The notes below the pieces were generated by a model. That model ran no database searches, had not been told where the DNA came from, and saw only the letters and a list, made by a program, of their open reading frames with translations. Both the position numbers and the translations under genes were made by a program. DNA of 38,946 nucleotides from Escherichia coli (GTDB lineage: Bacteria; Pseudomonadota; Gammaproteobacteria; Enterobacterales; Enterobacteriaceae). The stretch lies in NCBI RefSeq assembly GCF_003334255.1, contig NZ_QOWU01000055.1; one strand, written 5' to 3'. The first letter of the stretch is position 1; each line of letters begins with the position of its first letter. Positions 1 to 38,946 of this stretch are shown here, piece by piece.

Positions 1-62
1 AATCGGTGGAGCTGCATGACAAAGTCATCGGGCATTATCTGAACATAAAACACTATCAATAA
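1..62 (+). CDS. insB: IS1 transposase InsB, C-terminal fragment (5' end outside window)
   Basis: Frame starting at base 3 translates SVELHDKVIGHYLNIKHYQ with TAA stop at 60-62, matching the InsB C-terminus as remembered. Confidence 0.7.
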   Translation, partial: SVELHDKVIGHYLNIKHYQ

Positions 63-77
63 GTTGGAGTCATTACC
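1..77 (+). mobile_element. IS1 right-terminal segment (partial; element continues upstream of window start)
   Basis: Bases 1-77 match the 3' end of IS1 as I remember it: InsB C-terminal codons followed by the terminal inverted repeat ending AAGTTGGAGTCATTACC at position 77. Recognised from memory, no alignment run. Confidence 0.8.
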
Positions 78-271
78 TCTTCCTCCATCTTTTTTATTCT
101 TCGCGTTAATGCAGGTTGCGTAATATTGAGTAATTTAGCGGCATTGTTAAACGAACTGGACTCTGCCAGTATGACAAATGCCTTCATACTTGATAATTCA
201 TGCTTCATTATTACTCCGGAAAATGGAAGCGACGATTTTGGGTGGCTGGCCGTTAAAAATTTTAACTGCAT
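56..271 (-). pseudogene. ybhD: LysR-family transcriptional regulator truncated by IS1 (ybhD-like); only the N-terminal HTH remains
   Basis: Minus-strand ORF encodes a typical LysR HTH (MKHELSSMKAFVILAESSSFNNAAKLLNITQPALTRRIKKMEEE; likely start at 206-208). It crosses the IS1 end at 77, adds six IS-encoded codons (VMTPTY) and hits two consecutive stops (56-58, 53-55). The effector-binding domain is absent from the window. Confidence 0.7.
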
Positions 272-391: not shown

Positions 392-1444
392 ATGAAAAAA
401 ATACCCTGCGTGATGATGCGAGGTGGAACCTCGAGGGGCGCGTTCCTGTTAGCGGAACATTTACCCGAAGATCAAACGCAGCGCGATAAAATATTGATGG
501 CAATTATGGGTTCCGGTAACGATCTGGAAATTGACGGTATTGGCGGCGGTAATCCACTGACCAGTAAAGTCGCCATTATTAGCCGTTCCAGCGATCCGCG
601 TGCTGATGTCGATTATCTGTTTGCGCAGGTAATCGTTCATGAGCAACGTGTCGATACCACGCCTAACTGCGGCAATATGCTGTCTGGTGTTGGGGCATTC
701 GCCATTGAAAATGGTTTGATTGCAGCGACTTCGCCAGTTACTCGCGTACGTATCCGCAACGTCAATACGGGTACGTTCATCGAAGCTGATGTGCAAACGC
801 CAAATGGTGTTGTCGAGTACGAGGGTAGCGCCAGAATTGACGGCGTACCGGGTACTGCCGCACCGGTTGCGCTCACTTTCCTGAATGCCGCTGGAACCAA
901 AACCGGAAAAGTTTTCCCGACTGATAATCAGATTGATTATTTTGACGATGTCCCGGTGACCTGTATCGATATGGCGATGCCAGTCGTCATTATTCCGGCT
1001 GAATATCTGGGAAAAACAGGTTATGAATTACCGGCGGAACTGGATGCCGACAAAGCATTATTAGCCCGCATTGAATCTATCCGTCTACAAGCGGGTAAAG
1101 CAATGGGCTTAGGTGATGTCAGTAATATGGTTATCCCTAAACCTGTGCTTATTTCTCCAGCGCAGAAAGGCGGGGCAATTAATGTGCGTTATTTTATGCC
1201 GCATTCTTGCCATCGCGCGCTGGCGATAACCGGTGCTATTGCTATTTCCAGTAGTTGTGCATTGGAAGGCACCGTCACCCGACAAATCGTCCCTTCTGTA
1301 GGATACGGCAATATCAATATTGAACACCCCAGTGGTGCGCTCGACGTTCATTTAAGTAATGAAGGTCAGGATGCCACGACGTTACGCGCATCTGTTATTC
1401 GGACGACCAGAAAAATATTTTCCGGTGAAGTTTATCTTCCCTGA
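392..1444 (+). CDS. ybhH: PrpF/methylaconitate-isomerase-family protein (putative isomerase)
   Basis: 350-aa ORF starting MKKIPCVMMRGGTSRGAFL; PrpF-like family resemblance; position divergent from the LysR gene. Confidence 0.85.
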   Translation: MKKIPCVMMRGGTSRGAFLLAEHLPEDQTQRDKILMAIMGSGNDLEIDGIGGGNPLTSKVAIISRSSDPRADVDYLFAQVIVHEQRVDTTPNCGNMLSGVGAFAIENGLIAATSPVTRVRIRNVNTGTFIEADVQTPNGVVEYEGSARIDGVPGTAAPVALTFLNAAGTKTGKVFPTDNQIDYFDDVPVTCIDMAMPVVIIPAEYLGKTGYELPAELDADKALLARIESIRLQAGKAMGLGDVSNMVIPKPVLISPAQKGGAINVRYFMPHSCHRALAITGAIAISSSCALEGTVTRQIVPSVGYGNINIEHPSGALDVHLSNEGQDATTLRASVIRTTRKIFSGEVYLP

Positions 1445-1519: not shown

Positions 1520-2953
1520 ATGAATAAGAAATCGTTATGGAAGCTAATTCTGATATTAGCGATCCCATGTATTATTGGTTTTATGCCAGCTCCGGCAGGA
1601 TTAAGCGAACTGGCGTGGGTGCTTTTTGGTATTTACCTGGCGGCCATTGTGGGGCTGGTTATCAAGCCTTTCCCGGAACCTGTCGTACTGTTAATTGCCG
1701 TTGCTGCCTCAATGGTGGTGGTCGGTAACTTATCCGACGGTGCGTTTAAAACCACCGCCGTATTAAGCGGTTACTCTTCAGGTACCACCTGGCTGGTGTT
1801 CTCGGCGTTTACCTTAAGCGCCGCATTTGTGACCACCGGTTTAGGTAAACGTATTGCCTATCTGCTGATTGGTAAAATCGGTAACACCACGCTGGGTCTG
1901 GGTTACGTTACGGTATTCCTCGATCTGGTACTGGCTCCGGCAACACCGTCTAACACCGCGCGTGCGGGCGGCATTGTGTTACCGATCATCAACAGCGTGG
2001 CGGTGGCTTTGGGGTCCGAACCGGAAAAAAGTCCGCGTCGTGTCGGACATTACCTGATGATGTCCATTTACATGGTCACCAAAACCACCAGCTATATGTT
2101 CTTTACCGCAATGGCGGGGAACATTCTGGCGCTGAAAATGATCAACGACATTCTGCACCTGCAAATTAGCTGGGGTGGATGGGCGCTGGCAGCCGGATTG
2201 CCGGGCATCATTATGCTGCTGGTCACCCCGCTGGTGATTTACACCATGTATCCACCAGAAATTAAGAAGGTGGATAACAAAACCATCGCTAAAGCGGGCC
2301 TTGCCGAACTAGGACCGATGAAAATCCGCGAAAAAATGCTGCTCGGTGTCTTTGTGCTGGCGCTGCTGGGCTGGATTTTCAGTAAGTCTCTGGGGGTTGA
2401 TGAATCCACCGTGGCAATCGTTGTTATGGCAACCATGCTGCTGCTGGGTATCGTTACCTGGGAAGACGTGGTTAAAAATAAAGGCGGCTGGAATACCTTA
2501 ATCTGGTACGGCGGTATTATCGGCTTAAGCTCCTTATTATCGAAAGTTAAATTCTTCGAATGGTTAGCTGAAGTCTTTAAAAATAACCTGGCATTTGATG
2601 GTCACGGTAACGTTGCTTTCTTCGTTATTATTTTCCTCAGCATTATCGTGCGTTATTTCTTCGCTTCCGGTAGTGCCTATATCGTTGCTATGTTACCGGT
2701 ATTTGCCATGCTGGCGAACGTCTCCGGCGCACCGTTAATGTTAACCGCGCTGGCACTGTTGTTCTCCAACTCCTATGGCGGCATGGTTACTCACTATGGC
2801 GGCGCGGCAGGTCCGGTCATCTTTGGCGTGGGTTATAACGATATTAAATCCTGGTGGTTGGTCGGTGCGGTACTGACGATATTAACCTTCCTGGTGCATA
2901 TCACCCTCGGCGTGTGGTGGTGGAATATGCTGATCGGCTGGAACATGCTGTAA
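1520..2953 (+). CDS. ybhI: DASS-family (divalent anion:Na+ symporter-like) membrane transporter, putative di/tricarboxylate permease
   Basis: 477-aa highly hydrophobic ORF with multiple predicted TM segments; family assignment from sequence recognition and synteny. Confidence 0.85.
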   Translation: MNKKSLWKLILILAIPCIIGFMPAPAGLSELAWVLFGIYLAAIVGLVIKPFPEPVVLLIAVAASMVVVGNLSDGAFKTTAVLSGYSSGTTWLVFSAFTLSAAFVTTGLGKRIAYLLIGKIGNTTLGLGYVTVFLDLVLAPATPSNTARAGGIVLPIINSVAVALGSEPEKSPRRVGHYLMMSIYMVTKTTSYMFFTAMAGNILALKMINDILHLQISWGGWALAAGLPGIIMLLVTPLVIYTMYPPEIKKVDNKTIAKAGLAELGPMKIREKMLLGVFVLALLGWIFSKSLGVDESTVAIVVMATMLLLGIVTWEDVVKNKGGWNTLIWYGGIIGLSSLLSKVKFFEWLAEVFKNNLAFDGHGNVAFFVIIFLSIIVRYFFASGSAYIVAMLPVFAMLANVSGAPLMLTALALLFSNSYGGMVTHYGGAAGPVIFGVGYNDIKSWWLVGAVLTILTFLVHITLGVWWWNMLIGWNML

Positions 2954-3135: not shown

Positions 3136-5397
3136 ATGATCAAGTTATCTGAAAAAGGCGTGTTTCTCGCCAGTAATAACGAAATAATTGCCGAAGAACA
3201 TTTCACCGGCGAAATTAAAAAAGAAGAAGCCAAAAAAGGCACTATTGCCTGGTCTATTCTCTCTTCGCATAATACGTCCGGAAATATGGATAAACTTAAA
3301 ATTAAGTTTGATTCATTAGCCTCTCACGATATTACCTTTGTTGGTATTGTACAGACCGCTAAAGCGTCCGGTATGGAACGTTTCCCGCTGCCGTATGTGC
3401 TGACCAACTGCCATAACTCACTCTGCGCCGTCGGCGGCACTATTAACGGTGATGACCATGTTTTTGGTTTATCGGCGGCCCAGCGTTATGGCGGTATTTT
3501 TGTGCCTCCGCATATTGCGGTCATCCATCAATATATGCGTGAGATGATGGCAGGCGGCGGCAAAATGATCCTCGGGTCAGACAGCCACACCCGTTACGGT
3601 GCATTAGGGACAATGGCAGTCGGTGAGGGCGGCGGTGAGTTGGTAAAACAGCTGCTTAATGACACCTGGGATATCGACTATCCGGGCGTGGTTGCGGTGC
3701 ATCTGACCGGAAAACCTGCGCCGTATGTGGGGCCACAGGATGTGGCGCTGGCTATCATTGGCGCGGTGTTCAAAAACGGTTACGTCAAAAACAAAGTCAT
3801 GGAGTTCGTTGGACCGGGCGTTAGCGCGCTCTCTACCGATTTCCGTAACAGCGTTGACGTGATGACCACTGAAACGACCTGTTTAAGTTCTGTCTGGCAA
3901 ACCGATGAAGAAGTCCATAACTGGCTGGCGCTGCACGGTCGCGGCCAGGATTACTGCCAGCTTAACCCTCAACCGATGGCGTACTACGATGGCTGCATCA
4001 GCGTTGATTTAAGCGCCATCAAACCAATGATTGCGCTGCCGTTCCACCCGAGCAACGTGTATGAAATCGACACACTGAACCAGAACCTGACCGACATTCT
4101 GCGTGAGATTGAAATTGAGTCCGAACGCGTGGCGCACGGTAAAGCCAAACTCTCGCTGCTGGATAAAGTGGAAAATGGTCGCCTGAAAGTGCAGCAGGGG
4201 ATTATCGCGGGCTGTTCTGGCGGTAACTACGAAAACGTCATCGCGGCGGCGAATGCACTGCGCGGTCAATCCTGTGGCAATGACACCTTCTCGCTGGCAG
4301 TTTACCCGTCATCACAGCCGGTGTTTATGGATCTCGCCAAAAAAGGTGTGGTAGCAGATTTGATTGGCGCAGGCGCAATCATCAGAACCGCGTTCTGCGG
4401 CCCATGCTTTGGCGCGGGCGATACGCCAATCAACAACGGTTTGAGTATTCGCCACACCACGCGTAACTTCCCGAACCGCGAAGGCTCTAAGCCAGCTAAT
4501 GGGCAGATGTCAGCGGTGGCGTTGATGGACGCTCGTTCTATCGCTGCGACTGCGGCAAACGGTGGCTATTTAACCTCTGCCAGCGAACTTGATTGCTGGG
4601 ACAACGTGCCGGAGTACGCCTTCGATGTAACGCCGTATAAAAACCGTGTTTATCAGGGCTTTGTGAAAGGGGCAACTCAGCAACCGCTGATTTACGGGCC
4701 GAACATTAAAGACTGGCCGGAATTGGGTGCGCTGACTGACAATATCGTCCTGAAAGTGTGCTCGAAGATCCTCGACGAAGTGACCACCACCGACGAACTG
4801 ATTCCTTCCGGTGAAACCTCTTCTTATCGTTCAAATCCGATTGGTCTGGCGGAGTTTACCCTGTCTCGCCGCGATCCCGGTTATGTTAGCAGAAGTAAAG
4901 CGACTGCTGAGCTGGAAAATCAGCGTCTGGCGGGGAATGTCAGCGAGCTGACAGAGGTGTTTGCGCGCATTAAGCAGATTGCTGGTCAGGAGCATATTGA
5001 TCCGCTGCAAACTGAAATTGGCAGCATGGTCTATGCGGTGAAACCAGGCGATGGTTCTGCGCGTGAACAGGCGGCGAGCTGCCAGCGTGTGATTGGCGGT
5101 CTGGCGAATATTGCCGAGGAGTACGCGACTAAACGCTATCGTTCTAACGTCATCAACTGGGGGATGTTACCGCTGCAAATGGCGGAAGTACCAACCTTTG
5201 AAGTGGGGGATTACATTTACATCCCTGGCATTAAAGCGGCGCTGGATAATCCGGGTACGACGTTTAAAGGTTATGTGATCCATGAAGATGCGCCGGTAAC
5301 GGAAATTACGCTCTATATGGAAAGTCTGACTGCTGAAGAGCGCGAGATTATCAAGGCGGGTAGTTTGATTAACTTCAATAAAAACCGTCAGATGTAA
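3136..5397 (+). CDS. ybhJ: Aconitase-family protein (putative hydratase/dehydratase)
   Basis: ORF track frame 3112..5397; ATG at 3136 preferred (GGAG 6 nt upstream) giving 753 aa. Aconitase-family resemblance across the whole length. Confidence 0.85.
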
Positions 5398-5409: not shown

Positions 5410-5617
<208 letters not shown>

Positions 5618-10017: not shown

Positions 10018-11168
10018 GCTGGCAGGAGAAAATCAACGCGGCGCTCGATGCGCGGCGTGCTGCCGATGCCCTGCGTCGCCGTTATCCGGTGGCGCAAGGA
10101 GCCGGACGCTGGCTGGTGGCGGATGATCGCCAGTATCTGAACTTTTCCAGTAACGATTATTTAGGTTTAAGCCATCATCCGCAAATTATCCGTGCCTGGC
10201 AGCAGGGGGCGGAGCAATTTGGCATCGGTAGCGGCGGCTCCGGTCACGTCAGCGGTTATAGCGTGGTGCATCAGGCACTGGAAGAAGAGCTGGCCGAGTG
10301 GCTTGGCTATTTGCGGGCACTGCTGTTTATCTCTGGTTTCGCCGCTAATCAGGCAGTTATTGCCGCGATGATGGCGAAAGAGGACCGTATTGCTGCCGAC
10401 CGGCTTAGCCATGCCTCATTGCTGGAAGCTGCCAGTTTAAGCCCGTCGCAGCTTCGCCGTTTTGCTCATAACGATGTCACTCATTTGGCGCGATTGCTTG
10501 CTTCCCCCTGTCCGGGGCAGCAAATGGTGGTGACAGAAGGCGTGTTCAGCATGGACGGCGATAGTGCGCCACTGGCGGAAATCCAGCAGGTAACGCAACA
10601 GCACAATGGCTGGTTGATGGTCGATGATGCCCACGGCACGGGCGTTATCGGGGAGCAGGGGCGCGGCAGCTGCTGGCTGCAAAAAGTAAAACCAGAATTG
10701 CTGGTAGTGACTTTTGGCAAAGGATTTGGCGTCAGCGGGGCAGCGGTGCTTTGCTCCAGTACGGTGGCGGATTATCTGCTGCAATTCGCCCGCCACCTTA
10801 TCTACAGCACCAGTATGCCGCCCGCTCAGGCGCAGGCATTACGTGCGTCGCTGGCGGTCATTCGCAGTGATGAGGGTGATGCACGGCGCGAAAAACTGGC
10901 GGCACTCATTACGCGTTTTCGTGCCGGAGTACAGGATTTGCCGTTTACGCTTGCTGATTCATGCAGCGCCATCCAGCCATTGATTGTCGGTGATAACAGC
11001 CGTGCGTTACAACTGGCAGAAAAACTGCGCCAGCAAGGCTGCTGGGTCACGGCGATTCGCCCGCCAACCGTACCCGCTGGTACTGCGCGACTGCGCTTAA
11101 CGCTAACCGCTGCGCATGAAATGCAGGATATCGACCGTCTGCTGGAGGTGCTGCATGGCAACGGTTAA
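10014..11168 (+). CDS. bioF: 8-amino-7-oxononanoate synthase
   Basis: 384-aa PLP-dependent acyltransferase-like ORF; 4-bp overlap with bioB stop. Confidence 0.95.
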
Positions 11169-15180: not shown

Positions 15181-15217
15181 CAGGATAGCGAAGAAGACTG
15201 ATGACAAACGGAAAACA

Positions 15218-15315
15218 GCCTGATGCGCTACGCTTATCAGGCCTACATTTTCTCCGCAATATATTGAATTTGCGCGGTTTGTAGGCCGGATAAGGCGTTC
15301 ACGCCGCATCCGGCA
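15218..15315. repeat. BIME (two inverted REP elements) downstream of uvrB
   Basis: GCCTGATGCGCTACGCTTATCAGGCCTAC (15218-15246) and GTAGGCCGGATAAGGCGTTCACGCCGCATCCGGCA (15281-15315) with a conserved linker. Confidence 0.85.
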
Positions 15316-15371
15316 TAAACAACGCGCACTTTGTCTTCAATAGGAAGCCGGAATTTTCCTTCGGATTTCCG

Positions 15372-31896: not shown

Positions 31897-31921
31897 CAGG
31901 CTGATGAACAAACGCAAAACT

Positions 31922-32020
<99 letters not shown>

Positions 32021-32100
32021 TTTCACAACAAGCACTTGTCAGCAATTTGAGAACACGGGAAAAAATTTATCTGTTTTACCGCCCATAAGCCACCGAGACG

Positions 32101-37165: not shown

Positions 37166-37294
37166 ACTTGTGCTGGACGTAGCGTAAACGCCTGATCCGT
37201 CCAACGGTTCGGATTTTGTAGGCCTGATAAGACGCGGTAGCGTCGCATCAGGCATCTGTTGCCGGATGCGGCGTAAACGCCTTATCCGTCCTAC
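37166..37294. repeat. REP/BIME cluster downstream of ybiJ
   Basis: GTAGGCCTGATAAGACGCGGTAGCGTCGCATCAGGC (37218-37253) and GCCGGATGCGGCGTAAACGCCTTATCCGTCCTAC (37261-37294), plus a partial REP-like segment upstream. Confidence 0.8.
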
Positions 37295-37297
37295 GAA

Positions 37298-38840: not shown

Positions 38841-38883
38841 ACAATTTCTCCAAAAAGTGGGGCCTGCGCCCATAAGCGCTAAC

Positions 38884-38946
38884 TTAAGGGTTGAACCATC
38901 TGAAGAATGCGACGCCTCGGTGCCTCGTTAAGACGATGCCTCGCGT
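38884..38946 (-). CDS. 3' end of an upstream minus-strand gene (by synteny possibly the catecholate siderophore receptor fiu); partial
   Basis: Open minus-strand frame entering from the window edge and stopping at 38884-38886, 43 bp upstream of ybiX. Too short to identify from sequence; the assignment rests on synteny only. Confidence 0.25.

Follow-up and report, generated by a model that had tools for sequence, protein, structure and literature searches.

An IS1 insertion at codon 44 of ybhD, most likely a null allele of a LysR-type regulator in a K-12-like lineage of Escherichia coli

The window analysed here (the whole stretch of Escherichia coli DNA, 38,946 nucleotides in length) begins inside an IS1 element which interrupts ybhD, a LysR-type regulator gene divergent from ybhHIJ. 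The best overall explanation of the evidence, which we regard as probable, is an insertion of IS1 at codon 44 that most likely leaves ybhD null and ybhH and ybhI derepressed. Under this explanation a 768-bp IS1 would have transposed into ybhD codon 44 in a sublineage of phylogroup-A, K-12-like E. coli, and the rest of the element, together with the distal 273 codons of ybhD, would most probably be found on another contig. The relevant features, in window coordinates, are:

1–77, plus strand: right end of IS1, cut by the contig start, with the last 19 InsB codons and their stop at 3–62 and the terminal inverted repeat at 55–77.
56–208, minus strand: truncated ybhD', 50 codons and a TGA stop, with residues 1–43 native, D44E, then VMTPTY.
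78–86, no strand assigned: TCTTCCTCC, the first 9 target bases, with the junction placed by alignment to K-12; expected right-hand copy of an 8–9 bp target-site duplication.
209–391, no strand assigned: divergent intergenic control region between ybhD and ybhH, identical to K-12.
392–1444, plus strand: ybhH, a PrpF-family isomerase annotated as 4-oxalomesaconate tautomerase; intact, and the expected derepressed target.
1520–2953, plus strand: ybhI, putative tricarboxylate/anion permease; intact.
3136–5397, plus strand: ybhJ, aconitase-family hydratase; intact, with the start annotated in K-12.
38871–38946, no strand assigned: IS186 terminus (annotated IS421 family), 76–77 nt, between ybiX and fiu; absent in K-12.

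The original prediction had read the first 77 bp as the right end of IS1, with C-terminal codons of InsB, a stop at 60–62 and a terminal inverted repeat ending at base 77, and comparison with annotated copies is in full agreement. Bases 1–77 agree at every position (77/77) with the right end of the IS1 copies that RefSeq annotates as 'IS1-like element IS1A family transposase' in strains E8 and P276M, and the DNA of the InsB end in the window is that which lies under the annotated IS1 transposase CDS in both strains. Frame 3 of the plus strand translates as the C-terminus of the DDE transposase InsB, SVELHDKVIGHYLNIKHYQ followed by the TAA stop at 60–62. The terminal inverted repeat of IS1 is 23 bp long, and window 55–77 is the reverse complement of this repeat, which reads GGTAATGACTCCAACTTATTGAT on the inward-reading strand, and matches the ends of the IS1A copies exactly. 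Against complete E. coli genomes the query as a whole matches at 76,443 places, with a median of 10 per genome, and almost all of these are ends of IS1. Alignment confirmed that K-12 carries no IS1 at the ybhD junction, as had been supposed, and the 5,426 complete RefSeq E. coli genomes likewise all lack the codon-44 junction. AT-rich targets are expected for IS1, and the surroundings of the junction are AT-rich, with 32% GC within 25 bp on either side as against 52.5% for the window. We also observed that K-12 positions 800,425–800,444, just past the insertion point (CAAATAGTTGAACATGTAAA), loosely resemble the IS1 terminus (CAATAAGTTGGAGTCATTACC, window 58–77), a weak resemblance that falls in the top 4% of 24-mers in the region; because the displaced target resembles the IS1 end, megablast carries wild-type alignments 20 nt past the true junction (query 58–77).

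On the other side of the junction, bases 78–391 do not differ from the K-12 sequence of ybhD and the adjoining intergenic region, and ybhHIJ follow downstream. This establishes the gene as the orthologue of K-12 ybhD, divergent from the operon that it targets, and upholds the earlier view that IS1 interrupts a LysR-type gene in this position. The start of ybhD at window 208 on the minus strand is the start annotated in K-12. The junction lies inside codon 44, where a hybrid codon is formed (GAT to GAG, D44E); IS1 contributes the third base of this codon and six full codons (VMTPTY), followed by a TGA at 58–56. The tail and stop are therefore as originally described, but the reading frame had been taken as a 71-aa ORF extending to an upstream ATG at base 271, and the real product is 50 aa long. 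The 50-aa version is on record in public gene calls, whilst the 71-aa product is not on record and its start is used neither by the K-12 annotation nor by public gene calls; with the K-12 start at 208 and only the 50-aa version on record, we rejected the longer frame as a real product.

The truncation falls within the DNA-binding domain. Intact K-12 YbhD matches Pfam HTH_1 at residues 6–64 (model positions 2–60 of 60) and LysR_substrate at residues 91–290, whereas the stub matches only HTH_1 model positions 2–42 of 60 (E = 7e-13), and the linker helix and LysR_substrate domain are absent from the product encoded in the window. The N-terminal region of YbhD aligns with the solved DNA-binding domains of the LysR-type regulators BenM (3M1E/4IHS) and CbnR (5XXP); the stub keeps helix 2, the turn and most of recognition helix 3, but loses the end of helix 3. 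The helix-turn-helix had been called intact, which holds for its core, but the winged domain as a whole is incomplete, with the wing lost. A conserved TxxG motif marks the passage from the DNA-binding domain to the linker helix in LysR-type regulators (PMC11495319), and in YbhD this motif is TKAG at residues 60–63, past the break. Domain loss was judged from Pfam model coordinates, from the matches to solved LysR DNA-binding domains and from a review of the family (PMC11495319); a single-sequence AlphaFold model of YbhD had a pLDDT of 32.5 and was unusable for mapping the break. The locus is a disrupted LysR-type gene and not a functional member of the family.

Whether such a fragment could still act on the divergent promoter depends on what has been removed. 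The wing of a LysR-type regulator touches the minor groove and holds the helices in position, dimerisation proceeds through the linker helix, dyad T-N11-A sites are bound by dimers or tetramers, and no regulator of the family that acts as a monomer is known (PMC11495319). The truncation after residue 43 takes away the end of helix 3, the wing and the linker helix, together with the domain for effector binding and tetramerisation. The original prediction had left two outcomes side by side, a null allele or a fragment that binds without responding to inducer. Judged by domain architecture, the codon-44 allele is far more likely to be null than to encode a constitutive, effector-blind binder, because the wing and the dimerising linker helix are lost and no monomeric LysR regulator is known. 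It is true that helix 2, the turn and most of helix 3 are kept, that HTH_1 still scores at the E-value given above, and that the promoter and start codon are untouched, all of which would suit a 50-residue fragment that acts as an effector-blind repressor at the divergent promoter or interferes with regulation by another route. Such a fragment would however have to function after the loss of a third of its DNA-binding domain, a part that contains the end of helix 3 and all of the wing, and without the dimerising linker helix and the tetramerisation domain in a family in which no monomer is known to act (PMC11495319), and we consider an active stub very unlikely.

The distal part of ybhD is a separate matter, since it depends on where the contig ends. 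Window positions 78–38871 are colinear with K-12 MG1655 800,445–839,238, with 14 mismatches and no gaps in 38,794 bp (99.964% identity); the first mismatch is at base 10312, and all earlier K-12-derived bases, from 78 onwards, are identical. The match breaks off abruptly at 38871/38872, where the IS186 terminus begins, and this ybiX–fiu IS186 junction is common to 87 complete E. coli genomes. Both contig ends are thus repeats, with 77 nt of IS1 on the left and 76–77 nt of IS186 on the right. The same contig, at 39,032 bp and thus 86 nt longer overall, is present in GCA_965136505.1, an independent NCBI assembly; over the 10,208 bases that were compared it shows 100% identity with the window, and at the ybhD end it reaches 120 nt into IS1 rather than 77. 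We infer that the window is a whole short-read contig, each end of which lies about one k-mer (77 nt) inside a multicopy element, and that the contig stops 77 nt into IS1 because short reads cannot bridge this multicopy sequence. As the contig breaks inside repeats, the earlier statement that the whole effector-binding domain is missing from the locus describes an assembly edge and carries no evidence on the genome; as worded it is not supported. More generally, a gene that meets exactly one k-mer of a multicopy IS at a contig end should be treated as a short-read product and not as evidence of a deletion. Elsewhere in the window, the ybhJ–ybhC spacer (5421–5615) contains two tandem repeats of ~100 bp, 92% identical to each other, with short relatives at 15195–15335, 31898–32040 and 37259–37295 in BLAST searches against the window itself and K-12; these are probably REP/BIME-type intergenic repeats, as in K-12.

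A simple insertion makes definite predictions for the sequence to the left of IS1. Here ybhD codons 42–317 would be found with a repeated (T)CTTCCTCC, the duplicated bases being window 78–86 (TCTTCCTCC) or 79–86 (CTTCCTCC). The left junction would read ...AACATGTAAATCTTCCTCC|GGTGATGCTGCCAAC..., that is, distal ybhD, the duplication and then the IS1 left end, and the partner contig would end ...GTTGAACATGTAAATCTTCCTCC|GGTGATGCTGCCAACTTACTG. The comparison that bears most directly on this is with IS1 elsewhere in ybhD or in the ybhD–ybhH spacer, which we found in ten complete genomes representing seven independent events, all in the same orientation. Five of the seven are inside ybhD, at codon 30 in TUM9757, codon 86 in UTME-9, codon 93 in E8, codon 101 in 2020S05-235 and about codon 148 in 100416, and in these both gene halves are annotated beside the element (as RefSeq pseudogene halves). 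The remaining two, in P276M and TW14425, are in the ybhD–ybhH spacer; in P276M no more than 36 bp separate the end of IS1 from the ybhH start codon downstream of it, so that the control region is split and ybhD is intact. In all seven events the element is 768 bp long, is bordered by an 8- or 9-bp duplication and has intact flanks on both sides. The codon-44 allele shares element, gene, orientation and outcome with the five insertions inside ybhD, but differs from them in its position and in that only the right-hand junction is visible here.

That single visible junction also suits an IS1-associated rearrangement, in which the element borders a deletion or inversion, through an adjacent deletion or IS1–IS1 recombination, and distal ybhD is absent or relocated. 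The genome has several IS elements, the contig itself being bounded by IS1 and IS186, and the product expected at the distal junction, translated from a TTG in the IS1 left end (MAASPEEDLHV...), is not on record; this query, however, depended on a guessed start codon. Neither a metagenome scan for the distal junction, in which the duplication could be 0–14 nt long, nor a control scan for the known junction gave a match; with both scans empty, the collection is one without the lineage and the scans carry no information. Distal products from internal starts, 252 aa and 231 aa long, are on record in 414 and 1,979 blocks of the protein collection, respectively, but this look-up covered the longest contigs only, every one of which had a ybhD null allele other than this one. 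The empty searches thus add no weight to a rearrangement, and the seven other IS1 insertions in the region, without exception, are simple, with 8–9 bp duplications and intact flanks. By analogy with these, a simple insertion with target-site duplication appears very probable, and a rearrangement unlikely.

The junction itself is not confined to one assembly. The exact 50-aa product occurs on at least seven contigs, which come from at least 17 samples and were built with different assemblers; carriers include GCA_965136505.1 and the Logan assemblies ERR271233 (the same contig in 13 samples), ERR1948968 and SRR17308685. All contigs with this product end shortly after the junction, the Logan contigs carrying ~30 nt of IS1. 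The position of the junction at the extreme end of a contig is where a misjoin might be suspected, in which case ybhD would be intact in the real genome; but the same junction, recovered by different assemblers in at least 17 samples with up to 120 nt of IS1 in the NCBI assembly and ~30 nt in the Logan contigs, argues against a chimera, which we regard as having almost no chance of being correct. The assembly artefact which the original prediction had named as its possible refutation was therefore not borne out. Its suggestion that the insertion is strain-specific needs amendment, as the allele is lineage-specific, and the same site has also been hit in an unrelated background.

Among complete genomes, strain G1/2 is nearest to the window: over 23 kb the two agree at 100.0% (a value rounded by the tool), and ybhD is intact in G1/2. 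From this we conclude that the insertion is recent, within a sublineage of phylogroup-A-like (K-12-like) E. coli. The contig from SRR17308685 is of a different kind. Its positions 2777–2936 correspond to window 49–208 and place IS1 at the same ybhD nucleotide and in the same orientation, yet its flanks share only 97.1% identity with the window (84 mismatches in 2,936 bp) and its IS1 end differs by one base. These flanks best match other complete genomes at 99.8%, among them MS6198, ECONIH1 and IMT16316, and in five checked genomes from this best-matching group ybhD is annotated without interruption. The preferred reading of SRR17308685 is that IS1 struck this site a second time, independently, in an unrelated background, although one same-site coincidence in an enormous collection does not strongly support site specificity. 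A literature search on the sample accessions gave no match, and a bioRxiv match for ybhD was set aside as irrelevant, since it concerns E. coli DNA carried into a mouse transgene; the codon-44 IS1 allele is a previously undescribed one of a well-known kind.

The consequences expected for the neighbouring genes follow from published work on K-12. The control region at 209–391, ybhH, ybhI and ybhJ are all identical to K-12 in the window. Deletion of ybhD in strain BW25113 strongly upregulates ybhH and causes a growth phenotype on glycerol and L-malate (Rodionova et al. 2022, PMC9068703), and YbhD has a ChIP-exo site and predicted sites at ybhH and ybhI (PMC9068703); the repressor role comes from one RNA-seq study in BW25113 under one growth condition. 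Loss of YbhD would derepress ybhH and ybhI constitutively, and possibly ybhJ. Since the published deletion raises ybhH expression, derepression of ybhH and ybhI is the most likely state of the codon-44 lineage, by analogy with that mutant. YbhD function is lost in both and the expected phenotype carries over; however, the codon-44 allele is a natural one which keeps the promoter and 43 codons, and its added IS1 may have polar or antisense effects.

The orientation of the element raises a further way in which ybhHIJ might be expressed. The insA and insB genes read toward ybhH, with the insertion 314 bp upstream of the ybhH start, and a 1986 report by Prentki and colleagues is said to describe hybrid promoters created by IS1 ends in some contexts. 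Read-out from IS1, or a hybrid promoter formed at the junction, could on this basis drive ybhHIJ regardless of the loss of YbhD. A sigma-70 consensus scan of bases 1–450, however, found no plus-strand site, its single match being on the minus strand inside ybhD and no better than in shuffled sequence. A mobile promoter is thus highly improbable, and loss of the repressor is the preferred route to ybhH and ybhI derepression.

The gene is often found broken in nature, among contigs carrying C-terminal YbhD fragments. Other null alleles comprise nonsense changes (E43* in locus L021 and E72* in locus L010), a −1 frameshift at nt 120 in strain 536, a −1 frameshift at nt 189 in strain ED1a and locus L028, and a +1 frameshift at nt 221 in four assemblies (L012, L013, L014 and L019). 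In the protein collection the intact K-12 allele accounts for 10,383 blocks and the codon-44 allele for seven, alongside the 1,979 and 414 blocks of the 231-aa and 252-aa fragments. Like the codon-44 allele, the other nulls (ED1a, 536 and the nonsense alleles) disrupt the gene at codons 40–75, within the DNA-binding domain or shortly past its end, and leave ybhHIJ apparently intact where checked, but they are point mutations or single-base indels in A-runs, whereas here the break is due to a mobile element. For some of these natural nulls the cause could be sequencing error in homopolymers; ED1a and 536 belong to the early genomes to be finished.

Such recurrence invites the idea that ybhD is a target of repeated, possibly selected loss, with frameshifts, nonsense mutations and IS1 insertions as convergent routes to constitutive ybhHIJ expression and codon 44 as a true IS1 hot spot. 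The last element of this idea comes from the finding that the same nucleotide was hit in the same orientation in two unrelated backgrounds (97.1% identical flanks and a different IS1 variant). In complete genomes, IS1 was observed in the 1.1-kb ybhD region in 10 genomes (the seven events above), against roughly 7–13 expected by rough arithmetic from the genome-wide density of IS1. We rejected ybhD as a hot spot for IS1 in general, as this count is about that expected, without enrichment, and the resemblance of the target to the IS1 end is weak. A dispensable gene in neutral decay, together with the very many genomes searched, explains the data equally well, and we hold selected loss to be unlikely. 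If it were true, constitutive ybhHIJ expression would mean that a tricarboxylate- or malate-related substrate is taken up and metabolised.

In the codon-44 case an IS1 insertion has turned the gene of a little-studied, dispensable repressor into an ordinary pseudogene, a routine gene loss with little import beyond annotation. The correct label for the locus is an IS1-interrupted ybhD pseudogene, rather than a short helix-turn-helix protein or a deleted regulator. The isolates which carry the allele are natural ybhD nulls, and as such they provide material for testing the lone published claim that YbhD represses ybhH and ybhI, and are also useful in seeking the substrate of the YbhHIJ system.
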